A DNA stretch of 64,000 bases from an uncultured Bacilli bacterium (GTDB taxonomy: Bacteria; Bacillota_I; Bacilli_A; RF39; UBA660): NCBI GenBank assembly GCA_934101795.1, contig CAKORY010000001.1, forward strand, positions 76,878 through 140,877, read 5' to 3'. Made by a program: the position numbers and the translations under genes. Within the stretch, counting starts at the first letter, position 1. Each line of letters starts with the position of its first letter. Positions 49,644 to 60,692 of this stretch are shown here, in pieces. The notes under the pieces are model-generated. The model was not told the origin of the DNA and made no database searches. It saw only the letters and a list, made by a program, of their open reading frames with translations.

Positions 49644-50657
49644 ATGAAAAAAATTGCAGTATTTTTAGCTTTAATGCTAACTGTTGTAACTAATTGTTAC
49701 GCCCAAAAGGAGGTGAGTGGAAAAAATTATGTAGAATTTGATATTGATATGACATATTCTAATTTAACTATTGATGTTTATAATAATGATACTAATAAAT
49801 TTATAGAAAAAGTAATTCTTAATAAAATTGGTAATATTTATTATTATAATAAAGGTTTAAATATTAAGATAGTTGAAACTACAAGTGATAGTGCTTATGA
49901 ATATATGGAAGATATTATTTTAAATAATGAAAGTAAAGTAATAAAGTTTAATAGAAAAGTAAAAAATAAAAATGTTACTTTTAAAACAATTTATCGAGGA
50001 TATGGTAAATATATTGAATCTGTAGATAGTGATACTGATATTACTATATACGACGAATATTTTAATGAAGTAGGTTATTGTAAAAGTGAAGGCATGTGTG
50101 AAAAAGTTTTACTTGCAGGAAAATACTTTATTAAGGATAATAAAACTGGTAGAGTAGCATGTGAATTTGTTACTAATAATACACTTATTTATGTATCAAG
50201 ATATTTTATTGATGGAATATATAGTGAAGATGAATTAGAGTTAGATAATGTAACTAGAAAAGGTAAATTATATTATTTTAATGATCCAGCATATCCAGAG
50301 AAACATACTATTTTGGGAGAAGAATTAGATTTTTCAGATAGTAGTAATTACTATTATATATTCGGGGAAGGTATATTTTATAAATATAGTAAGAAAGATG
50401 AGGTTATTGATATTCCTAAAAAAGATGATGCTACTAGTGATAAAGTAAATGATACTGATATTTCAGATAACACTTCTAGTGATACAAAAAAAGATGATAT
50501 TACTAGTGATAAAGTAAATGATACTGGTATTTCAGATAATACTTTTAGTGATACAAAAAAAGATGATATTTTAGATGAAGAAATATATATAAATGTTCCT
50601 GATACACAAACAAATAGCAATGATATTATTTATTTTAAGAAAAAATATTATTTTTAA
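49644..50657 (+). CDS. secreted protein with a signal peptide and a C-terminal 21-aa tandem repeat
   Basis: The signal is MKKIAVFLALMLTVVTNCYA. The repeats are DDATSDKVNDTDISDNTSSDTKK and DDITSDKVNDTGISDNTFSDTKK, encoded by an approximately 63-bp nucleotide repeat at 50432-50557. Confidence 0.6.
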   Translation: MKKIAVFLALMLTVVTNCYAQKEVSGKNYVEFDIDMTYSNLTIDVYNNDTNKFIEKVILNKIGNIYYYNKGLNIKIVETTSDSAYEYMEDIILNNESKVIKFNRKVKNKNVTFKTIYRGYGKYIESVDSDTDITIYDEYFNEVGYCKSEGMCEKVLLAGKYFIKDNKTGRVACEFVTNNTLIYVSRYFIDGIYSEDELELDNVTRKGKLYYFNDPAYPEKHTILGEELDFSDSSNYYYIFGEGIFYKYSKKDEVIDIPKKDDATSDKVNDTDISDNTSSDTKKDDITSDKVNDTGISDNTFSDTKKDDILDEEIYINVPDTQTNSNDIIYFKKKYYF

Positions 50658-51140
50658 ATGAAAAAGTTAATTTTATTAATTATGTTACTTTTTTTAACAG
50701 GATGTAAAAATGAAGTACAAAATAGTGAAATGTCAAAATATAAAAGCAATTATTATGGTTATCTTATAATACCCAGTATTAATATGACATATGGATTTTA
50801 TGATACCTTAAATGAATTTAATGATGTTAATAAAAATGTTACTTTGCTAAAATCAAATATTAAAAATACTTATATTTTAGCTGCTCACTCAGGTTCAGGT
50901 TATCTTGCTTACTTTAATGATTTAAAGTTTTTAAAAATAAATGATGAAGTATATCTTAAATTTGGAAATACTACTTTAGAGTATAGTGTTGTAAATATTA
51001 AAAGTGAAAAGAAAAACGGTAAGATAAAGATTAAGAATAAAGAAAATCAATTAATTTTGACAACTTGTGATCAAGTAAGAAAAGGTAATCAGTTAATAAT
51101 TGAATCTGATCTAATAATAGATAAAACATCAAATAATTAA
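50658..51140 (+). CDS. sortase-like lipoprotein (putative)
   Basis: The lipobox is LLFLTGC. A His motif (ILAAHSGSG) and a TLxTC-like catalytic Cys motif (LILTTCDQVRK) are present. Confidence 0.4.
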   Translation: MKKLILLIMLLFLTGCKNEVQNSEMSKYKSNYYGYLIIPSINMTYGFYDTLNEFNDVNKNVTLLKSNIKNTYILAAHSGSGYLAYFNDLKFLKINDEVYLKFGNTTLEYSVVNIKSEKKNGKIKIKNKENQLILTTCDQVRKGNQLIIESDLIIDKTSNN

Positions 51141-51234: not shown

Positions 51235-51627
51235 ATGAAAACTAGAAGTGAATTAAGAAATATAGCAATGATTATATTATATCAAATTGATATTTATGAA
51301 GATAGAAAAATTCCATTTGAAATAGATAAAGTAATAAAAGAAAATTTAAATGTTGATAATGAATTTGTTAAAGATATTGTGTATGGTGTAACAACATATA
51401 AAAATGATTTAGATGAAATTGCAAATAAATATATTGATGGATGGACTATAGATAGAATTGATAAAACTGGAGCAGCTATACTTAGAATGGGATTATATGA
51501 ACTTAAGTTTACTGATACACCAGAGGTTGTTGTTATTAATGAAGCTGTAGAACTTTCTAAAAAATATTGTGATGATGCAGTTAGAAAAATAATTAATGCA
51601 GTTTTAGATAAGTTTATAAAAGAATAA
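51235..51627 (+). CDS. nusB: transcription antitermination factor NusB
   Basis: The 130-aa product has the NusB pattern (RSELRNIAMIILYQ.. DRIDKTGAAILRMGLYEL). Confidence 0.85.
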   Translation: MKTRSELRNIAMIILYQIDIYEDRKIPFEIDKVIKENLNVDNEFVKDIVYGVTTYKNDLDEIANKYIDGWTIDRIDKTGAAILRMGLYELKFTDTPEVVVINEAVELSKKYCDDAVRKIINAVLDKFIKE

Positions 51628-51679: not shown

Positions 51680-52939
51680 ATGAATATTGAATATATTAAA
51701 ATAAGTGATTTAAATAATTATATTAAGAATGTATTAGATAGTAATACTTTTTTAAATAAAGTATATTTAAAAGGTGAAATTAGTAATTTTAAAAATCATA
51801 CAAGAGGACATCTTTATTTTACTTTAAAAGATGATTCATCAAGACTTAGTGCTGTTATGTTTCAAAGTAGTGCATCAAGACTTACATTTACACCAGAAGA
51901 TGGAATGAATGTGTTAGTTGAAGGAAGAATTAGTGCATATCCAGCACAAGGGTCTTATCAAATTTATATTGAAAAGATGGAACCTGATGGTCTTGGAGCT
52001 TTATATATAGAGTATGAAAAGTTAAAGAAAAAACTTGCTCTAGAAGGATTATTTGATGGTGTGCATAAAAAAGCTATCCCGAAGTTTCCTGAGAAAATTG
52101 GGGTAATTACAGCATCAACTGGAGCAGCTGTAAGGGATATTATGAGTACAATAAGAAGAAGATATCCAGTTTGTGAAGCAATACTTTTTCCATGTTTAGT
52201 TCAAGGTAAAGATGCAGCACCAGATATTGTAAGACAAATTAAAAGAGCAGATGAATTTGGTGTTGATACAATTATTGTTGGTCGTGGTGGAGGTTCTATT
52301 GAAGACTTATGGGCCTTTAATGAAGAAATTGTTGCTCATGCTATTTATGAATGTAAAACCCCGATTATAAGTGCTGTTGGTCATGAAATTGATTGGACAA
52401 TCGCCGATTTTGTGGCAGATTTGAGAGCTCCAACACCGACCGGGGCAGCAGAAATGGCAGTGCCAACTGTGTTAGATATTAATACTTTGCTTAATAATTA
52501 TAAAATTAGACTTAATAAGAATATTAAAAACATGGTTAATACTAAGTTTATTAAATGGAGAAGTTTAAAAAATAGTTTCATTTTAAAAAATCCAATGACC
52601 ATGTATGAAATGAAGGAACAAAAACTAGATACTTTAATAGACAATTTAAATAAAGATATTAAAGTAATAATTCAAAATAATGAAGTAAAACTTAATAAAG
52701 TAAAAATGTCTGTTGCTCTTCAAAATCCAATGAGTTTAATTGATAAGAAGAAAAATGAATATAATCTACTTATTAATACTTTAAAACTTGTTAATCCTTT
52801 AGGTATTTTAGAAAAGGGATATTCACTTGCAACAATTAATGATAAAGTAATTAAGTCTAGTAATGATGTAAATGTTGGTGATTTAATTAATGTTAAGTTA
52901 CATGAAGGGGCTATTAAGGCTAAAGTTGTAGAAAAATAG
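51680..52939 (+). CDS. xseA: exodeoxyribonuclease VII large subunit
   Basis: An OB-fold N-terminus (VYLKGEISNFKNHTRGHLYFTLKD) is followed by the GVITASTGAAVRD catalytic core. Confidence 0.9.
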   Translation: MNIEYIKISDLNNYIKNVLDSNTFLNKVYLKGEISNFKNHTRGHLYFTLKDDSSRLSAVMFQSSASRLTFTPEDGMNVLVEGRISAYPAQGSYQIYIEKMEPDGLGALYIEYEKLKKKLALEGLFDGVHKKAIPKFPEKIGVITASTGAAVRDIMSTIRRRYPVCEAILFPCLVQGKDAAPDIVRQIKRADEFGVDTIIVGRGGGSIEDLWAFNEEIVAHAIYECKTPIISAVGHEIDWTIADFVADLRAPTPTGAAEMAVPTVLDINTLLNNYKIRLNKNIKNMVNTKFIKWRSLKNSFILKNPMTMYEMKEQKLDTLIDNLNKDIKVIIQNNEVKLNKVKMSVALQNPMSLIDKKKNEYNLLINTLKLVNPLGILEKGYSLATINDKVIKSSNDVNVGDLINVKLHEGAIKAKVVEK

Positions 52940-53044: not shown

Positions 53045-53884
53045 ATGAATGAATTAATGTTAAATAATAGTATTTTTGAAAATGTAAAGCATGTTGATGA
53101 AAATGGTAATGAATATTGGTTTGCAAGAGACCTACAAAAAGTATTAAATTATTCTCAATGGAGGAGATTTGATGAAGTAATGGACAAAGCTAAAATTTCA
53201 TGTCAACTAAGTAATTTAAATGTTGAAGACCATTTTGCCGATGTCGGCAAAATGGTCGAAATAGGTTCTAAAACAAAAAGAAAAATTGAAGATTATAAAT
53301 TATCACGTTATGCATGTTACTTAATTGCTCAAAATGGTGATTCAAGAAAGAAGACGATAGCTCTTGCTCAAACTTATTTTGCAGTTCAAACTAGAAAACA
53401 AGAAATTTCAGAAAGAGAATATTCTAGTTTAACAGAAGATGAAAAAAAATTTTATCAAAGAAATTTAACTAAAAAAGGTAATTATTCTTTGAACCAAGCA
53501 GCTAAAGATGCGGGAGTAAAGAACTTTGATAAATTTCATAATGCTGGTTATAAAGGGTTATATAATGGTGAGACTGCTAATGATATTGCCAAAAGAAAAG
53601 GATTAAGATATAGAGAAGATATCTTAGATAATATGGGTAGTGATGAATTAATAGCAAATCTTTTTAGAATTTCTCAAACAGAACAAAAATTAAAAAGAGA
53701 TAATGTCAATGGAGAAGTAAATGCAAATGATGTACACTACGAAGTAGGTAAAAAAATAAGAAATACTATAAAAGAACTAGGAGGAACAATGCCAGAAGAT
53801 TATCCAACTCCAGAAAAAAGTTTAAAAGTATTAGAAAAAGAAAATAAAAACAAAATAACTAGCAATAGTAAATTATTAAAATAA
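53045..53884 (+). CDS. dinD: DNA damage-inducible protein D (DinD) homolog
   Basis: Extended colinear similarity to E. coli DinD: an N-terminal Bro-N domain, then SRYACYLIAQNGD, AQTYFAVQTRKQE, GYKGLYNGET, DNMGSDELIANLFRISQTEQKLKRDNVNG and ELGGTMPEDYPTPEKS. Confidence 0.85.
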   Translation: MNELMLNNSIFENVKHVDENGNEYWFARDLQKVLNYSQWRRFDEVMDKAKISCQLSNLNVEDHFADVGKMVEIGSKTKRKIEDYKLSRYACYLIAQNGDSRKKTIALAQTYFAVQTRKQEISEREYSSLTEDEKKFYQRNLTKKGNYSLNQAAKDAGVKNFDKFHNAGYKGLYNGETANDIAKRKGLRYREDILDNMGSDELIANLFRISQTEQKLKRDNVNGEVNANDVHYEVGKKIRNTIKELGGTMPEDYPTPEKSLKVLEKENKNKITSNSKLLK

Positions 53885-53915: not shown

Positions 53916-54134
53916 ATGGAAGAAAATAAAAATTTTGAAAGTTCACTACAAGAACTTGAAACTATAGTTAAAGAATTAGAAAGTGGCAATGTTAATTTAG
54001 ATGATGCTATTAATAAATATACTGAAGCTATGAAATTAGCTAAGTATTGTGGTGAAAAATTAAATGATGCTACACAAAAAGTAAATAAAATTTTAACTGA
54101 AGATAATGAATTAAAAGAATTTAAAGCAGAATAG
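53916..54134 (+). CDS. xseB: exodeoxyribonuclease VII small subunit
   Basis: The 72-aa product has FESSLQELETIVKELESGNVNLDDAINKYTEAMKLAKYCGEKL. Confidence 0.9.
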   Translation: MEENKNFESSLQELETIVKELESGNVNLDDAINKYTEAMKLAKYCGEKLNDATQKVNKILTEDNELKEFKAE

Positions 54135-54145
54135 GAAAGTTAATT

Positions 54146-54886
54146 ATGAAATATATTAAAGATTTTTTGAAAACAATATCTATATTAATCTTTATATTAA
54201 CGTTTGCATATGTATTATATATTGTTTTATCAAATGCTTTGTTTGGTGTTTTGCTTGGATTTGAAGCTGGTTATGGAATTTTTTTAATAATAAGTTGGAT
54301 AATTGTTTTAGCCATAGAATCAAATTTAAAAGGAAGTGTATCTAAATATATATTACCAATATTTTTGGCGTTATGTATGGTTTGCTCATTAATTTTTGCC
54401 AATCAGTTAGATTTTAAACCAAGTGGATTTTCAGCAAGTACAAGTGCGGAAGAACAATTTTATTTTATTATTACACTTATAATTATTCCAAATTTAGCAT
54501 TATGTTTTTTAATTTCACTTATTTTTTTGGAAAGATTTACTATAGTATATTTAAAAAAAGAAAAAATTAATCGATATAATAATGTAATTTCGGTTACTAA
54601 TGGAGATGTTTATTGTATTAAAGTTAAACCTTTTAGAGAGGTAGTAGGTTACCTAACATTTAATGAGATGAATAATAATGAATATAAATTAAGTATTATA
54701 ATGGATGACACCTATGAAAATGAGAGAAAAGAAACTAAAACAAAAGTAATAGTAAAAAAACTAATGAAACTTGGTTATAAAAAGATAATCGTAGATAAAG
54801 AAAATTATGATTATTTAAAAGAATCGCTTAATTACTATAATATAAAATCTATTGAAGATGAAGATAGTTATGTGTTAGAGATATAA
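54146..54886 (+). CDS. paralog 1 of a tandem triplet: 4-TM membrane protein with a conserved approximately 100-aa C-terminal domain of unknown function
   Basis: The C-terminus ...LGYKKIIVDKENYDYLKESLNYYNIKSIEDEDSYVLEI is shared with the next two genes. Confidence 0.6.
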   Translation: MKYIKDFLKTISILIFILTFAYVLYIVLSNALFGVLLGFEAGYGIFLIISWIIVLAIESNLKGSVSKYILPIFLALCMVCSLIFANQLDFKPSGFSASTSAEEQFYFIITLIIIPNLALCFLISLIFLERFTIVYLKKEKINRYNNVISVTNGDVYCIKVKPFREVVGYLTFNEMNNNEYKLSIIMDDTYENERKETKTKVIVKKLMKLGYKKIIVDKENYDYLKESLNYYNIKSIEDEDSYVLEI

Positions 54887-54888
54887 AA
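54770..54888 (+). repeat. approximately 119-bp near-identical direct repeat (copy 1; copy 2 at 55432-55550) covering the 3' ends of paralogs 1 and 2
   Basis: cttggttataaaaagataatcgtagataaagaaaattatgattatttaaaagaatc[g/a]cttaatta[c/t]tataatataaaatctattgaagatgaagatagttatgtgttagagatataaaa. Confidence 0.9.
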
Positions 54889-54900
54889 ATATGAATTGGA

Positions 54901-55548
54901 GTGATAATTTTGATTGAATTATTAATTATATTTATAATTGTTCCTTTGTTAATTGCAGAAATTATTATATTTTTGCAAGATAAATTAAAATTTAAGTTTA
55001 TAATTCCTATTTTGATTGGAATAGTGTTAATTAATACTTATTTTAAAACTAAAACATGTTCAGGTGGAACTTTTGAATCAATAGGTTGTGCTGCTTTTTA
55101 TGGTTTTGGTATATTTTATTTAATTATAGCATTAATAATTTCTATAGTGTGTTTATATAAAACTTCAGGTATATTAATTGCATTTAAAGATATTGGAAAA
55201 AAACCAAAAGAAATATTTGAAAATAAAATGCCAGAAAATAAAAAGTTTTTGCATAATAGTAATTATGATATTTATTATTTAAAAAAAGATATGTATGGAA
55301 AAATATATGGTTGTTTAGTAATTGATAAAAAGAGTGATGATACATGTGAAATAGACGTTGTAGATTTAGATAATAGAAATATATTAAAAAAGAATAGAAA
55401 ATTTGAATTGATATTAGAGAAACTAAAAGAACTTGGTTATAAAAAGATAATCGTAGATAAAGAAAATTATGATTATTTAAAAGAATCACTTAATTATTAT
55501 AATATAAAATCTATTGAAGATGAAGATAGTTATGTGTTAGAGATATAA
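54901..55548 (+). CDS. paralog 2 of the tandem triplet (3-TM membrane protein plus the conserved C-terminal domain)
   Basis: GTG or TTG start. The C-terminal 39 aa are identical to paralog 1. Confidence 0.6.
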   Translation: MIILIELLIIFIIVPLLIAEIIIFLQDKLKFKFIIPILIGIVLINTYFKTKTCSGGTFESIGCAAFYGFGIFYLIIALIISIVCLYKTSGILIAFKDIGKKPKEIFENKMPENKKFLHNSNYDIYYLKKDMYGKIYGCLVIDKKSDDTCEIDVVDLDNRNILKKNRKFELILEKLKELGYKKIIVDKENYDYLKESLNYYNIKSIEDEDSYVLEI

Positions 55549-55561
55549 AAGGAGTAGAAAA

Positions 55562-56209
55562 ATGAATGATATTTTAGTTTATATTTTTATGTCACCAATT
55601 ACAATGATAGGTGTTGCTACAATTATTATGATAATTCAAAATAGAATTAAAAATAAAATTATATTTCCCATTTTATTGTTGTTTGGCTTGTTATATTGTT
55701 TCTATAAAATCAAGACGCGGCCTTCTGGAAGTTGGGACGCTGTTGGTCATGGCTTATATTATGGATTTTTTTGTTTCTATTTTATTATATGTTTGTTATT
55801 TTTGATATTAAGTTATGTTATGCAGTTTATGAGAATATTGGAATTAGTTAGAATTCCTGATATTGATGAAAATGATTTAAATGAATTTAAAAGTCAAATA
55901 TCAGCTAATAAAATATATTTGATAAATACAAATAATGATATATATTTTTTTCGCAAAGAGGCAAGTAATAAGTTGTTGGGATGCTTGATAATTATTTCAA
56001 AAGATGATGGAATGAAAAAAGTTGAAATTATTGATTCTGATAAAAATAATAAAAATATAAAAATAAAACTAATTATAAAAAAAATAAAAGAATTAGGTTA
56101 TAAAAAAATAATAGTAAATAAAGATGCTTATAATTATTTGGAAAATTCGTTTGATAAATATAATATAAAATCAATTGAAAATGCAGATGGGTATATGTTA
56201 GAATTATAA
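55562..56209 (+). CDS. paralog 3 of the tandem triplet (diverged copy)
   Basis: It has the same architecture. The C-terminus LGYKKIIVNKDAYNYLENSFDKYNIKSIENADGYMLEL is about 70% identical to paralog 2. Confidence 0.6.
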   Translation: MNDILVYIFMSPITMIGVATIIMIIQNRIKNKIIFPILLLFGLLYCFYKIKTRPSGSWDAVGHGLYYGFFCFYFIICLLFLILSYVMQFMRILELVRIPDIDENDLNEFKSQISANKIYLINTNNDIYFFRKEASNKLLGCLIIISKDDGMKKVEIIDSDKNNKNIKIKLIIKKIKELGYKKIIVNKDAYNYLENSFDKYNIKSIENADGYMLEL

Positions 56210-56224
56210 ATGGAGGTTTAATTT

Positions 56225-57637
56225 ATGGAAGTAAAAGATATAACAAATAGAGATGTAGATTTTGCTAAATGGTATACAGATGTATGTAAAAAAGCTGATT
56301 TAGTAGATTATTCAAGTGTAAAGGGTAGTATGATTATAAGACCACTTGGTTATGCTATCTGGGAAGAAATGCAAAAAGTGTTAGATAGAATGTTTAAAGA
56401 AACTGGGCATGAAAATGTGCAAATGCCTATGTTTATTCCTGAGTCACTTTTAAATATTGAAAAAGAACATGTTGAAGGTTTTGCTCCTGAAGTTGCTTGG
56501 GTTACTTATGGTGGAACAGAAAAACTTGAAGAAAGAATGTGTGTAAGACCAACTAGTGAAGTTTTATTTTGTGATCATTATAAAAAAATAATTAATACTT
56601 ATAGAGATTTACCGATTCTTTATAATCAATGGTGTACAATTGTTAGATGGGAAAAAACTACTAGACCATTTCTTAGAAGCAGAGAAATACTTTGGCAAGA
56701 AGGCCATACAATGCATGCAACTGCTGAAGAAGCTAGAGAAGAAACACTTAGAATGTTTAATGTTTATAAAAAGTTTCAAGAAGATTATTTAGCACTTCCA
56801 GTTATAACAGGAAAGAAAACTGATAAGGAAAAATTTGCTGGAGCTGAAGAAACATATACTTTGGAAGCCATGATGTATAATGGTTATGCTCTTCAAAATG
56901 GTACAAGTCATTATTTTGGAAATCATTTTGCTAAAGCTTTTGGTATTAAATTTACTGATAAAGATAATACACAAAAAACTCCATATCAAACTAGTTGGGG
57001 AGTTACTACAAGAATGATCGGTGCTATTATAATGACTCATGGTGATGATCATGGACTTGTTCTTCCACCTAGAATTGCACCATTTAAAACAATTATTATT
57101 CCAATTGGTGATGTTTCAGAAAAGCTTGAAGAATTAAAGTCTAGTCTTAAAAATAATAATATTACATTTAAAGTTGATGAAAGAGATAAAACTCCAGGAT
57201 TTAAATTTGCTGAAGCTGAAGTAAAAGGGTATCCAGTTAGAATAGAGCTTGGCAAAAGAGATTTAGAAAATAATTTAGTTACCTTAGTTAGAAGAGATAC
57301 TTTAGAAAAAGTACAAGTTTCTTTCGAAGAAGTTATTCCTAAATTAAATGAACTTCTTGATATTATTCAAAAAGATATGTTTGAAAGAGCTAAAGCTAGA
57401 CGAGATAGTATGATTTATGATGCTAAAACTTATGAAGAATTAAAGACACTTGCTACCACTAAAGATGGTGGATTTATTAAAATCAATTGGTGTGGTAATG
57501 TAGAATGTGAAAATAAAATTAAAGATGAATTTGGTATTAAGTCTAGATGCTTAATTGAAAATGAACAAGTCACAGGTCCATGTACTGTATGTGGTAAGGA
57601 AGCTAAAACAAGATTATATATTGGCAGACAATATTAA
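56225..57637 (+). CDS. proS: proline--tRNA ligase (archaeal/eukaryotic-like type)
   Basis: The N-terminus is DFAKWYTDVCKKADLVDYSSVKGSMIIRPLGYAIWE. Class II motifs are present, and the C-terminal Zn-binding tail is CGNVECENK...CTVCG. Confidence 0.9.
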   Translation: MEVKDITNRDVDFAKWYTDVCKKADLVDYSSVKGSMIIRPLGYAIWEEMQKVLDRMFKETGHENVQMPMFIPESLLNIEKEHVEGFAPEVAWVTYGGTEKLEERMCVRPTSEVLFCDHYKKIINTYRDLPILYNQWCTIVRWEKTTRPFLRSREILWQEGHTMHATAEEAREETLRMFNVYKKFQEDYLALPVITGKKTDKEKFAGAEETYTLEAMMYNGYALQNGTSHYFGNHFAKAFGIKFTDKDNTQKTPYQTSWGVTTRMIGAIIMTHGDDHGLVLPPRIAPFKTIIIPIGDVSEKLEELKSSLKNNNITFKVDERDKTPGFKFAEAEVKGYPVRIELGKRDLENNLVTLVRRDTLEKVQVSFEEVIPKLNELLDIIQKDMFERAKARRDSMIYDAKTYEELKTLATTKDGGFIKINWCGNVECENKIKDEFGIKSRCLIENEQVTGPCTVCGKEAKTRLYIGRQY

Positions 57638-57640
57638 AAT

Positions 57641-57676
57641 AAAAAATGAATAAAGCAATTGCTTTATTCATTTTTA
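57641..57676. terminator. bidirectional terminator between proS and the convergent DUF1292 gene
   Basis: A 12-bp stem AATGAATAAAGC-AATT-GCTTTATTCATT with a flanking A-run and T-run. Confidence 0.8.
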
Positions 57677-57900
57677 AATTTATTTGCAAATTTTTGTAAT
57701 ACTTTTATTACTTCTTCTTTATCATTTAAACCAACTAGATATTCATTATTATTAATTGTATTTATTTTTCTTAAACAAAAATCTGCAACATCATCTTCGT
57801 TTGTTAAAAATAAATATTTTATATTATTAATTTCTAATTCTGCCGTAACCATGTAGTCTTTGCCATCTTCAAGTGTTACTACTTCAATATTTTCGTTCAT
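57664..57900 (-). CDS. DUF1292 (UPF0473) family small protein
   Basis: VTLEDGKDYMVTAELEINNIKYLFLTNEDD...EYLVGLNDKEEV is the DUF1292 pattern. Confidence 0.65.
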   Translation of the reverse strand: MNENIEVVTLEDGKDYMVTAELEINNIKYLFLTNEDDVADFCLRKINTINNNEYLVGLNDKEEVIKVLQKFANKFKNE

Positions 57901-58601
57901 CTTGAACCTCCGTTTAATTCTTTAAGTAAATTATTAATTTCTTCTTGTGATTTATCTTCTTTAACATAAGCTTTTATAACTTTTTCCATTAATTTAGTAT
58001 AATCTTCTAAAGTTATATTTTTACTTTCTAGATATTCATCAAATGAACTATGTAAACAAGCTTTAATTTCTTCTTCTGTATATTTTTCTGGAGAATCACC
58101 AATTAATCTACTCATATTTCTAAATATTTCATCCATAAATTCATTTTTCTTATATTCATTTAGATTACTGTAGCAGCCATATATTCTAGTATCAATATCA
58201 AATTCTTTATTTTTATCTAATATATCTTCGGCCATATTATGTGTGTTATAATCCCAGTATGGTCTTTCTTCATTTGGATTATATCCAAAATATTCGGTGT
58301 TTTCACTAACTGAACTACCAATTGTGTTTCTTACTTCCTGAGTTTTATTTAAATTATCTATACCATCTTTAAATGCATTTGCCCCAACAATAAGTCCTGC
58401 TCCAAGTGATACAAATATAATTGCTTTTTTAGCTAGTTCATTTATACCTTTTGGTTTTTGTTTTTTTCTTCTTATATTTCTAGTTGGGGTACAATTAGTA
58501 CTTTTTCTGACAATATTATCAATTCTGTCATATTTTTTTGTGCCATCTTTGTTAAATAAAACATCAACTGTATAATCTAAATCATTAATATCATTTGTCA
58601 T
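57897..58601 (-). CDS. hypothetical single-TM protein
   Basis: The ORF overlaps DUF1292 by 4 nt and has a basic N-terminus plus one TM. Confidence 0.45.
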   Translation of the reverse strand: MTNDINDLDYTVDVLFNKDGTKKYDRIDNIVRKSTNCTPTRNIRRKKQKPKGINELAKKAIIFVSLGAGLIVGANAFKDGIDNLNKTQEVRNTIGSSVSENTEYFGYNPNEERPYWDYNTHNMAEDILDKNKEFDIDTRIYGCYSNLNEYKKNEFMDEIFRNMSRLIGDSPEKYTEEEIKACLHSSFDEYLESKNITLEDYTKLMEKVIKAYVKEDKSQEEINNLLKELNGGSR

Positions 58602-58818
58602 TTTTATACCTTCTCTCTATATTAATTTTACATTAAAATTATATCTTTGGCAACATTATTTTAAAAATAAATAAAAAACAATTGAATAAAGTGACAAATT
58701 ATTATATAATTAAGTTATGGTAAAGGAAATATTTGTGTTCAGTTGAAAGCCTTAATCATGTAATGATAAACTATAATTTGTTATGGTTTATACTATTAAG
58801 AATAGAAAAGGTGATATA

Positions 58819-59457
58819 ATGAATAAAAAGACAAGAAATATTATTTTAGGGTTATATGTGGTAGCACTTCTTACTTTAGTAACTGGGGCAACATATGCAT
58901 ACTTTACAATGGTTAGGGTGGCTCATGTATCCCCTAAATTAGAAGCAAAAACTGCAACACTTAATTATATGCTTTTTGATGCTGGAAATCCTATAAGTAT
59001 TTATCCTGATACTTTTAATTTTGCAGAAGGAATGGGTAATTTATCATCAGAAACATTTGCAAGAGTGTATTTAAGACATAGTGAAGGTGATATAGCTGCT
59101 AGTGTTAAATATAATTTGTTTTTAAATATTGAAAGCAATACTTTAACTTATTCAACACCTTCAGAAAAACCTGAATTAATACTTGAAGTTAAAGATTATA
59201 ATGGAAATGAAGTAACTAGTATTGAAGGTTTAAATTATGTAAGTGTAGTTGATGGTAAAGGTAATACTATTAAAGGCTTTGATATAACTACCACAACTGG
59301 TAAATATTATATAACTAAAAATAGAGAAATAACCACAGATACTGAACTTACAGAAAGATGGAATGCTAAAGTTACTTATGTTAATTTAAGTGAAAATCAA
59401 AATAATAATTTAGAAAAAGAATTAAAGGGTTATATACGTATAGAAAAGGCGGAATAG
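58819..59457 (+). CDS. TasA/camelysin-like secreted protein with a SipW-cognate-like signal peptide
   Basis: The signal is MNKKTRNIILGLYVVALLTLVTGATYAYF. The product is about 210 aa, like TasA/CalY. It is homologous to the N-domain of ORF 39378 (PELILEVKDYNGNEVTSIEGLNYVSV..GNTIKGFDITTTTG). Confidence 0.5.
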   Translation: MNKKTRNIILGLYVVALLTLVTGATYAYFTMVRVAHVSPKLEAKTATLNYMLFDAGNPISIYPDTFNFAEGMGNLSSETFARVYLRHSEGDIAASVKYNLFLNIESNTLTYSTPSEKPELILEVKDYNGNEVTSIEGLNYVSVVDGKGNTIKGFDITTTTGKYYITKNREITTDTELTERWNAKVTYVNLSENQNNNLEKELKGYIRIEKAE

Positions 59458-59458
59458 T

Positions 59459-59851
59459 ATGACTTTAGAAGAAAAAAAACAACAATATCAAAAAATTTTA
59501 GTTGAAGAATATCGTAGTAGTCATCCAGAAGAAACTGAAGGATTAACTGATGAAGAAGTAACTTTAATGAATCCTATTACCGATGCTGATTTTACATTTC
59601 TTATAGGAAATGAGTTAAGTAAAATTAAAGCAGAAATTGATGGATTATTAGAAGATATTCAATATAGCGAAAGTATGATAAATACTATCGGAACTCGTTA
59701 TGATGTAAAAGCTGAGTTACAAAATGATATAGTTTATGCTAGAAGAAGAAATGCTGAATTAGAAAAAAAACGTGAAAGTTTACAAAAACAATATGATGAG
59801 TTAAGAAGTATTTGGTTTGAAAGAGATATTAATGATGAAAGAAATAGATAA
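59459..59851 (+). CDS. hypothetical coiled-coil protein
   Basis: It follows the TasA-like gene with a 1-nt gap. Confidence 0.4.
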   Translation: MTLEEKKQQYQKILVEEYRSSHPEETEGLTDEEVTLMNPITDADFTFLIGNELSKIKAEIDGLLEDIQYSESMINTIGTRYDVKAELQNDIVYARRRNAELEKKRESLQKQYDELRSIWFERDINDERNR

Positions 59852-60692
59852 TTTTTTATATTTTTTAAAAAAAGAATTAAATTATTCAGATTATACTATT
59901 AAAAATTATCAGTTAGATTTAACTGATTTTTTTAAATATGTTAATAAAAGTAATATAGATTTTTTAAATATAAAAAATACTCATGTAAGAGGATATCTTA
60001 AATATTTGGATACATGTAATTTGAAAAATACTACTATATCTAGAAGAATAAGTGCTCTTAGAACATTTTATAATTATTTACTTGAAAAAGGATTTGTTAA
60101 AAGTAATATATTTTTAAATGTAAAAAATCCTAAATTGGAAAAGAAACTTCCTAATTATTTGAATTATACTGAAATAGAAGAATTACTTGCATCTATTGAT
60201 ACGAGTAATTATGAGGGATTAGAAAGAAGACTATTAGTTGAAATGTTTTATTCAACTGGTTGTCGGGTTGGGGAAATGGTAAATATTAAAATAAGTGATA
60301 TTGATTTTAGTAGTAAAACTATTAAAGTAATGGGTAAGGGAAGTAAAGAAAGAATTGTATATTATGGTGACTATGCAAGTAAGTATTTGGAAGATTATTT
60401 AAAAAATAAAGATAGAAAAGGATATTTATTTACAAATAAAAGGGGAGAAAAATTAACTATAGAAGAAGTTGAGTATATTGTTAGGGATATTATGAAACAT
60501 ATTTCTATTAAGACTCATGTTACACCTCATGCTCTTAGACATACATTTGCAACTCACTTACTTAATAATGGCGCAGATATTAGAACTGTTCAAGAACTTC
60601 TTGGTCATGCTAATTTAAGCACAACTGGTATTTATACTCATGTTTCTAGTGATAGATTAAAAGATGTATATTTTAAAACTTTTAAAAGATAA
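59832..60692 (+). CDS. tyrosine site-specific recombinase XerC/XerD family
   Basis: An N-terminal SAM-like domain is present. The catalytic motifs are HALRHTFATHLL and LGHANLSTTGIYTHV. Confidence 0.8.
   Translation: MMKEIDNFLYFLKKELNYSDYTIKNYQLDLTDFFKYVNKSNIDFLNIKNTHVRGYLKYLDTCNLKNTTISRRISALRTFYNYLLEKGFVKSNIFLNVKNPKLEKKLPNYLNYTEIEELLASIDTSNYEGLERRLLVEMFYSTGCRVGEMVNIKISDIDFSSKTIKVMGKGSKERIVYYGDYASKYLEDYLKNKDRKGYLFTNKRGEKLTIEEVEYIVRDIMKHISIKTHVTPHALRHTFATHLLNNGADIRTVQELLGHANLSTTGIYTHVSSDRLKDVYFKTFKR

Follow-up and report, generated by a model that had tools for sequence, protein, structure and literature searches.

We analyzed a 64,000-nt stretch of contig CAKORY010000001.1 (GenBank assembly GCA_934101795.1) from an uncultured Bacilli bacterium (the window, in whose positions all coordinates are given), in which three open reading frames (ORFs) at 54146 to 56209 lie in tandem on one strand between xseB and proS. 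An earlier reading of the DNA letters and ORF translations (the sequence-only reading) had described three membrane paralogs with a conserved C-terminal domain and had proposed an immunity, defense, or phage-exclusion array. Here, we describe the three genes as a lineage-restricted accessory family, with a predicted GNAT-like domain, that varies from zero to three copies between strains at one site inside an essential operon.

Gene organization

Genes at the locus run in the order nusB-xseA-dinD-xseB-paralog 1-paralog 2-paralog 3-proS, all on the + strand. Paralog 1 (54146 to 54886; 246 amino acids [aa]) is of the long type, with four transmembrane (TM) helices followed by the GNAT-like domain (approximately 54524 to 54883). 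Paralog 2 (54910 to 55548; short type A) and paralog 3 (55562 to 56209; short type B; 215 aa) each have three TM helices and the same domain (approximately 55171 to 55545 and 55838 to 56206, respectively). For paralog 2, the more likely start is the TTG at 54910, which lies downstream of GGAG and gives 212 aa (identical to database protein P0002), over the alternative GTG at 54901 (215 aa). The insertion site is bordered on the left by xseB (53916 to 54134; Pfam Exonuc_VII_S, E 4e-20) and on the right by proS (56225 to 57637; prolyl-tRNA synthetase; Pfam tRNA-synt_2b, HGTP_anticodon, and ProRS-C_1). The sequence-only reading had the array directly following the dinD-like gene (53045 to 53884); xseB lies between them.

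The host operon begins with nusB (51235 to 51627; Pfam NusB in syntenic loci and tblastn synteny) and xseA (51680 to 52939; exonuclease VII large subunit; Pfam Exonuc_VII_L in syntenic loci and synteny) and ends with proS, followed by a bidirectional terminator-like hairpin with a 15-bp stem (57642 to 57675). From nusB to the end of proS, no terminator-like site was found except a weak one inside proS. Within the array, intergenic gaps are 11 to 23 nt, a Shine-Dalgarno-like sequence precedes every paralog, and the 3' end of the cassette supplies the proS ribosome-binding site (RBS). Judged from sequence, the array genes appear promoterless and cotranscribed within a nusB-xseA-(dinD)-xseB-proS operon; a promoter scan was uninformative at such a high A+T content (70 hits, against an expectation of 58.6 ± 8.5). 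The G+C content of the array (0.19 to 0.24; 54000 to 56250) is below that of xseA and proS (0.30 to 0.36) and near that of nusB and xseB. An antisense ORF inside paralog 2 (55184 to 55489, − strand; 101 aa), for which no relative was seen, was taken as spurious and is probably a by-product of AT richness.

Predicted structure

Hydropathy profiles gave four hydrophobic segments in paralog 1 and three each in paralogs 2 and 3. The three proteins are 34 to 40% identical overall, almost identical in their last 40 or so residues, and carry a C-terminal domain of approximately 120 aa with the motif LGYKKIIV...YxYL...NIKSIE...YxLE(I/L). Three tandem membrane paralogs (ORFs of 246, 212 or 215, and 215 aa) with three or four TM helices and a conserved C-terminal domain and motif, as first described, are thus real.

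An AlphaFold model of paralog 3, built on a 12-sequence alignment (predicted local distance difference test [pLDDT], 77.5), has helices at residues 2 to 28, 34 to 52, and 58 to 90, followed at residues 93 to 215 (pLDDT, 80 to 91) by beta-alpha-alpha-beta-beta-beta-alpha-beta-alpha-beta-beta (DSSP). A domain-only model of residues 127 to 246 of paralog 1, the most divergent copy (pLDDT, 88; predicted template modeling score, 0.82), has the same topology less one helix; across both models, pLDDT in the C-terminal domain was 80 to 95. The DSSP strings of the two models match the GNAT topology, beta1-alpha1-(alpha2)-beta2-beta3-beta4-alpha3-beta5-alpha4-beta6-beta7. In Foldseek searches of the PDB with both models, the best 50 matches listed were all GNAT acetyltransferases (top E 4.7e-6; 122 matches with E ≤ 1e-3), including MJ 3eo4, SpeG, Staphylococcus aureus 3d8p, HP0935, and PanZ/YhhK (4cry_B and 2k5t), the last being the nearest small members by size; TM-scores were 0.5 to 0.65. 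Named matches in the viral structure library BFVD were mostly acetyltransferases. From this AlphaFold topology and these Foldseek matches, the C-terminal domain is predicted to have a GNAT-like fold, the outcome in two models of the structure prediction called for by the sequence-only reading. That reading had recognized no family. This holds for sequence searches, since none of the three proteins had a significant match in Pfam, NCBIfam, PHROGs, or PADLOC, and is now qualified by the predicted fold. Weak matches (DUF6930, E 0.1; phrog_10743, E 0.015; Gelsolin; GTF2I) were treated as noise, and a PDB sequence-profile search returned only noise (de novo TIM barrels and a cytochrome b556 TM match) and no GNAT.

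The beta4-alpha3 loop reads D-x-D-x(2-5)-K-x-x-K and is free of glycine. In helix alpha3, K164, K167, and K174 are invariant and are accompanied by other lysines, in a proteome that is lysine rich as a whole, and alpha4 opens with a conserved tyrosine pair. The net charge is approximately +2 to +3 in loop 1 and less positive in the conserved loop 2 (KT.P.GS.EAVG); the four-TM form has a positive N terminus and an acidic last loop. Because of this charge distribution, the positive-inside rule predicts that loop 1 and the GNAT-like domain are cytoplasmic.

Distribution and strain variation

A word-indexed profile search of 5.8e9 proteins yielded 8 clusters, and a full HMMER scan of 1.84e9 representatives yielded 7 matches (2 of them fragments). 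No homologue was found by tblastn against phages and plasmids, and peptide-pattern scans of genome, viral, and metagenome contigs found no relatives. The family is an orphan confined to one clade of uncultured gut Bacilli. The closest prolyl-tRNA synthetase loci come from "Clostridium sp. CAG:609," "Tenericutes UMGS686/UMGS1410," and "Erysipelotrichaceae RUG14232," and the samples with family loci include human (Hadza) gut metagenomes. Relatives of paralog 1 are proteins P0004 and P0008 and the pseudogene at locus L086; those closest to paralog 2 are P0005, P0006, and P0011. Intact single-copy alleles are common in two other species (P0011 in 96 index blocks, P0025 in 29).

In all loci recovered, the family sits between xseB and proS. 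The sequence-only reading expected ispA or other core genes after xseB; in more than 30 related species the site is empty, with proS approximately 10 nt after xseB (spacer, 8 to 43 nt). The empty site reads xseB-TAG-GTGAGGTT-ATG(proS), the same as in outgroups, and because of this resemblance the empty state is read as ancestral; it still segregates within species. Two empty loci of the window's own species (L006 and L061) have a proS approximately 94% identical in nucleotides to that of the window and an xseB 98 to 99% identical; another empty locus, L008, is nonetheless 99.0% identical in xseA and proS to the one-copy locus L001.

Copy number varies between strains, as the sequence-only reading had suggested checking. 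Within the window's species, besides the empty sites, we found one copy of the short-B type (L087 and L088), two copies in the order short-A then long (L004 and L005), and three copies in the order long, short-A, short-B (the window, L096, and L097). One metagenome sample held one-copy and three-copy haplotypes together. A neighbor survey, also proposed earlier, confirmed a fixed xseB/proS site and found no linked toxin or known defense system within approximately 8 kb on each side; DinD is absent or replaced in relatives. No mobile-element signature was detected in the form of attC-like repeats or a target-site duplication, and for want of these, integron and transposon models were set aside; the junctions have in common only an RBS-like GGAGGTT.

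Recombination, transfer, and selection

Paralogs 1 and 2 have a 119-nt 3' tract in common (54770 to 54888 and 55432 to 55550, + strand; repeat family D1) with 117 identical positions, as first noted at 98% identity. Its borders are sharp, both mismatches (54826 and 54835) are synonymous, and outside it the two genes are 49.7% identical. Gene conversion or recent duplication had been offered as causes; the tract is attributed here to gene conversion and not to a recent duplication of the whole gene.

The last 123 nt are 87 to 92% identical among window paralog 3, L004_b, L087, and L001, genes whose bodies are 46 to 60% identical. The 3' end goes with array position and not with gene type: the copy that abuts proS always carries a "type B" block (56087 to 56211, + strand, in the window), and window paralogs 1 and 2 have a "type A" end in common, so crossovers fall within the conserved 3' block. 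Between paralogs, identity is 20 to 34% in the TM region, 15 to 32% in beta1-beta4, 48 to 62% in alpha3-beta5, and 55 to 100% in alpha4-beta7.

The short-A bodies of L004_a and L001 are 92% identical in nucleotides, with a whole-gene synonymous divergence (dS) of 0.16, versus 79 to 83% identity and dS of 1.1 to 2.0 in the flanking core genes of the same two loci. This difference in dS indicates a recent movement of the short-A cassette between species into the same site. Long-type alleles within one species have only 45% protein identity beside flanks that are 98 to 99% identical. Cassette exchange is best explained by homologous recombination.

The overall ratio of nonsynonymous to synonymous divergence (dN/dS, omega) was 0.3 to 0.68 versus 0.02 to 0.24 in the flanks; in the N-terminal half of the GNAT-like domain, omega between orthologs was 0.16 to 0.40, with small counts per segment. 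Codon comparisons of this kind place intact copies under purifying selection. Family copies are also often inactivated by pseudogenization and frameshifts. At L086 (140 to 902), the copy between xseB and proS is a long-type pseudogene, interrupted by a frameshift and no fewer than four in-frame stops; the last 61 codons alone are still open (P0071). The CAG:609-type species has alleles with an in-frame deletion of alpha3-beta5 and others that break at an A9 tract (L091 3340 to 3348; nt 340 to 348 of the P0011 allele). This A9 coincides with the point at which +1 or −1 frameshifts divide several public alleles (P0013, P0016, P0018, P0019, and P0021) into a TM half and a GNAT half. Runs of nine or more A are rare in this genome (one in the 64-kb window), and the splits could reflect phase variation or sequencing error.

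Comparison with known systems

On the structural models, the family appears to work most like a membrane-tethered GNAT, resembling the superfamily (Pfam clan CL0257) in predicted topology and best Foldseek matches and differing from it in profile and motif A. In true GNATs, alpha3-beta7 is the donor-binding half, and a conserved donor side with a divergent acceptor side is the usual logic of these enzymes; the family likewise has a conserved C-terminal, donor-side half and a variable N-terminal, acceptor-side half. Unlike typical members, its domain is shorter (approximately 120 aa) and fused to three or four N-terminal TM helices, and it lacks the motif A present as SERGKGYG in soluble GNATs of sister species. 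GNAT toxins of type II toxin-antitoxin systems (TacT, AtaT, and KacT) are soluble, retain motif A, and adjoin a small ribbon-helix-helix/DUF1778 antitoxin gene, whereas the array proteins are membrane anchored, without motif A, and without a small partner ORF.

Aminoacyl-phosphatidylglycerol synthases (aaPGS/MprF) also combine an N-terminal TM domain with a cytosolic GNAT-fold domain that has no acetyl-CoA motif; they have 2 to 14 TM helices and a positively charged tRNA-binding helix (PMC6103681). The very basic alpha3 of the family recalls the tRNA-binding helix of aaPGS and other aminoacyl-tRNA-dependent transferases of GNAT fold (Fem and L/F-transferase), although lysine richness is general in this AT-rich genome. 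However, aaPGS and Fem proteins carry tandem GNAT repeats (>300 aa) and the family a single unit of approximately 120 aa, with no PF09924 or FemAB match in Pfam. The neighboring aminoacyl-tRNA synthetase gene, proS, is owed to the insertion hot spot and not to a conserved functional pairing.

The esaG and tipC immunity arrays against Firmicutes type VII secretion system (T7SS) toxins recombine, grow, and shrink through blocks of conserved sequence (PMC9484751). By analogy, the population dynamics of the family resemble those of T7SS arrays (esaG, tipC, and tsaI), without the toxin linkage: both have nonidentical tandem paralogs in strain-variable number and recombination through conserved blocks (here, a mosaic 3' block, with the gene orders long-short-short and short-long), and TsaI-type immunity proteins are likewise polytopic membrane proteins. 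The array differs in having no linked toxin or T7SS genes (approximately 8 kb on each side), no sequence relationship, a housekeeping operon as its setting, no more than three copies, and one 3' homology block. Integron cassettes provide a further likeness (promoterless ORFs in the same orientation at one site, an upstream promoter, and strain-variable content), but the array has neither attC-like inverted repeats (gaps, 11 to 23 nt) nor IntI or attI, and the family is no integron. Among empty-site loci, the downstream flank was examined in L061, which also has the XerC-like gene that lies 3.6 kb downstream of the array.

Interpretation

The explanation that we favor, with a probability of roughly 0.55 for the whole, is an accessory family of membrane-anchored GNAT-like proteins with a strain-specific protective or contingency function. 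Its proteins are predicted to be held in the membrane by three (short types) or four (long type) TM helices and to present a minimal GNAT-like domain to the cytoplasm. Their genes, apparently cotranscribed with the nusB-xseA-xseB-proS operon, are cassettes without promoters of their own that occupy a single fixed junction in it, xseB|proS; they comprise at least three old body types (long, short-A, and short-B), whose TM and N-terminal GNAT halves are 15 to 35% identical. Cassettes are exchanged between strains and species, most simply by homologous recombination through conserved flanks, and arrays are rearranged and homogenized through the conserved 3' block of 120 to 145 nt. The alpha3-beta7 half may serve a common function, that is, binding of an acyl- or phosphate-bearing donor or oligomerization, and the divergent TM and beta1-beta4 half may direct each type to its own membrane-proximal target. 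Because one half would thus be common in function and the other type specific, we propose a strain-specific role, protective or of the contingency kind, on the inner side of the membrane, such as resistance or immunity to an agent that acts on the membrane or the modification of a precursor of the envelope. Architecture and evolutionary behavior are the part of this explanation that we regard as highly probable; the protective or acyl-transfer role is tentative. An immunity or defense role is plausible, going by evolutionary behavior only. The array proposed by the sequence-only reading therefore finds agreement in accessory, diversified genes present in zero to three copies and disagreement in the lack of a cognate toxin, a defense hidden Markov model (HMM) match, or a phage or plasmid link.

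Several observations weigh against this explanation. GNAT-clan Pfam HMMs (Acetyltransf_*) gave no match to the paralogs even at E ≤ 1, motif A (Q/R-x-x-G-x-G/A) is absent from all of them, and the beta4-alpha3 loop has a 3-residue indel between paralogs; the motif loss and variable loop length argue against canonical acetyl-CoA binding. TM-scores against GNAT structures are moderate, and the models rest on 12 sequences. Tandem copies occur in the window's species alone, the two other species having one copy each. Within approximately 8 kb on either side, a toxin, bacteriocin, T7SS, or defense gene was seen in none of the haplotypes examined, and PADLOC-DB 2.0 HMMs gave no match at E ≤ 1 for the three paralogs (DinD alone matched, as PDC-S13). 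The overall dN/dS could mean relaxed constraint and not diversifying selection. Given the loss of motif A and no linked toxin or defense gene, the catalytic and immunity readings are both uncertain.

Were the genes an orphan immunity array, each paralog would bind and neutralize, without catalysis, a single variant of a polymorphic toxin (bacteriocin or T7SS/LXG type) that competitors direct at the membrane, and the GNAT-like domain would be a scaffold and not an enzyme. Such an array would suit the tandem, nonidentical paralogs in zero to three copies, the frequent pseudogenes and highly divergent alleles within species, the lost motif A, and recombination through a conserved block, as in esaG and tipC arrays (PMC9484751); we consider it unlikely, as no toxin or secretion gene is linked in any haplotype, the genes lie inside a housekeeping operon, two species have a single copy, and no known immunity family matches. 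Less probable still is a fast-evolving, near-neutral passenger without function at the level of the organism, kept because it lies inside an essential operon and provides the proS RBS, so that clean loss would be rare. The RBS does lie in the cassette 3' end, and an orphan family of very low G+C content (0.19 to 0.24) and raised dN/dS, with copies that are frameshifted, internally deleted, or, in one case, heavily decayed, is what a passenger would look like. Yet omega is low between orthologs in the GNAT N-terminal half (0.16 to 0.40), a confident common predicted fold is retained at 30 to 40% identity, intact alleles are widespread (P0011 and P0025), and clean empty alleles exist, which implies that a cassette can be lost or replaced.

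Many defense systems use effectors with TM domains, and the paralogs might be anti-phage (abortive-infection or exclusion) membrane effectors. In that case, the cytoplasmic GNAT-like domain would detect a phage signal or alter some part of the phage, and the TM helices would target the membrane or keep DNA from entering. PADLOC was negative, phages, plasmids, and viral contigs held no homologues, no partner sensor gene is present, and the genes appear to be constitutively cotranscribed with the essential proS; these points make the anti-phage reading, if anything, more improbable than the passenger, despite a patchy accessory distribution, transfer between species, and a hot-spot operon shared with DinD/PDC-S13 and HipA-like genes. 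The boldest extension of the favored explanation, to which we assign the lowest likelihood of all, is an unrecognized class of minimal membrane-tethered GNAT-fold proteins without the acetyl-CoA motif, organized as a recombining strain-specific immunity or contingency array inside an essential operon; these might, for example, use an aminoacyl-tRNA or other phosphate-bearing donor held by the basic alpha3 and, on the inner side of the membrane, modify a lipid, a cell wall precursor, or a peptide entering the cell.

The family is notable mainly for its orphan architecture and as a clear example of cassettes turning over within an essential operon. A functional GNAT-like domain would make it an unusually small membrane-anchored module of acyltransferase type with a noncanonical donor site, restricted to poorly known uncultured Bacilli of human and animal guts. 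The locus offers a compact natural example of promoterless accessory cassettes that colonize a junction inside an essential operon, spread between species via conserved flanks, and are shuffled via a short 3' block. The polymorphism from zero to three copies may serve as a strain marker in gut metagenomes and points to a selective agent acting on these bacteria, e.g., a phage, a bacteriocin, or a host factor.

Other features of the operon

The nusB-proS operon as a whole behaves as a hot spot of insertion, and its other junctions carry different small genes in different relatives; in the window, DinD and the array are the only inserts. The dinD-like gene, with a Bro-N domain (NCBIfam NF008573, E 9e-108; PADLOC PDC-S13, E 1e-104), is a separate accessory insertion between xseA and xseB; its protein also matches a "Type I specificity subunit" profile in the N-terminal part of the latter. 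A conspecific strain has a copy with 84% amino acid identity between flanks of 98 to 99% identity. Relatives have the gene replaced, pseudogenized, or, in many cases, not at all, and in the CAG:609-type species frameshifts break it into two to three pieces. The xseA/xseB junction of relatives holds DinD (intact, divergent, or pseudogenized), a soluble Acetyltransf_3 GNAT, or unclassified ORFs. The soluble GNAT (174 to 178 aa; SERGKGYG), which the window lacks, lies immediately 5' of xseB in sister species (L003 5168 to 5701; L007 6205 to 6738; L008 6185 to 6715; L091 2132 to 2665), where xseB thus has a true GNAT on one side and a TM-GNAT-like gene on the other. Derivation of the array from this gene by duplication was unsupported (hhalign aligned the two in GNAT register but with a probability of 4%).

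At the nusB/xseA junction, where the window has a 52-nt gap, relatives carry HipA_2-like or unclassified ORFs, and folD was rejected as the identity of these inserts. The weak HipA_2-like ORFs (HipA-like kinase; 240 to 270 aa) lie at L001 3174 to 3986, L007 2424 to 3221 and 5393 to 6199 (the latter after dinD), and L018 3770 to 4486.

The neighbors of the array in all haplotypes are nusB, xseA, dinD, xseB, proS, a sortase gene, a XerC-like gene, and an MBOAT gene. Upstream, a 337-aa secreted protein without a Pfam match (49644 to 51140) has KKDDxTSDKVNDTxISDNTxSDT twice in a C-terminal near-duplicate segment. The sortase gene lies directly 3' of it and is less variable among relatives; the two may be a sortase-substrate pair. 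Between proS and the XerC-like recombinase gene (59817 to 60692) are four small ORFs without an informative Pfam match (57664 to 58601, − strand; 58783 to 59851, + strand). Among these small ORFs 3' of proS, one of 78 aa has a marginal DUF1344 match, and one of 130 aa is 70% identical in L087, whose other genes are 99 to 100% identical.

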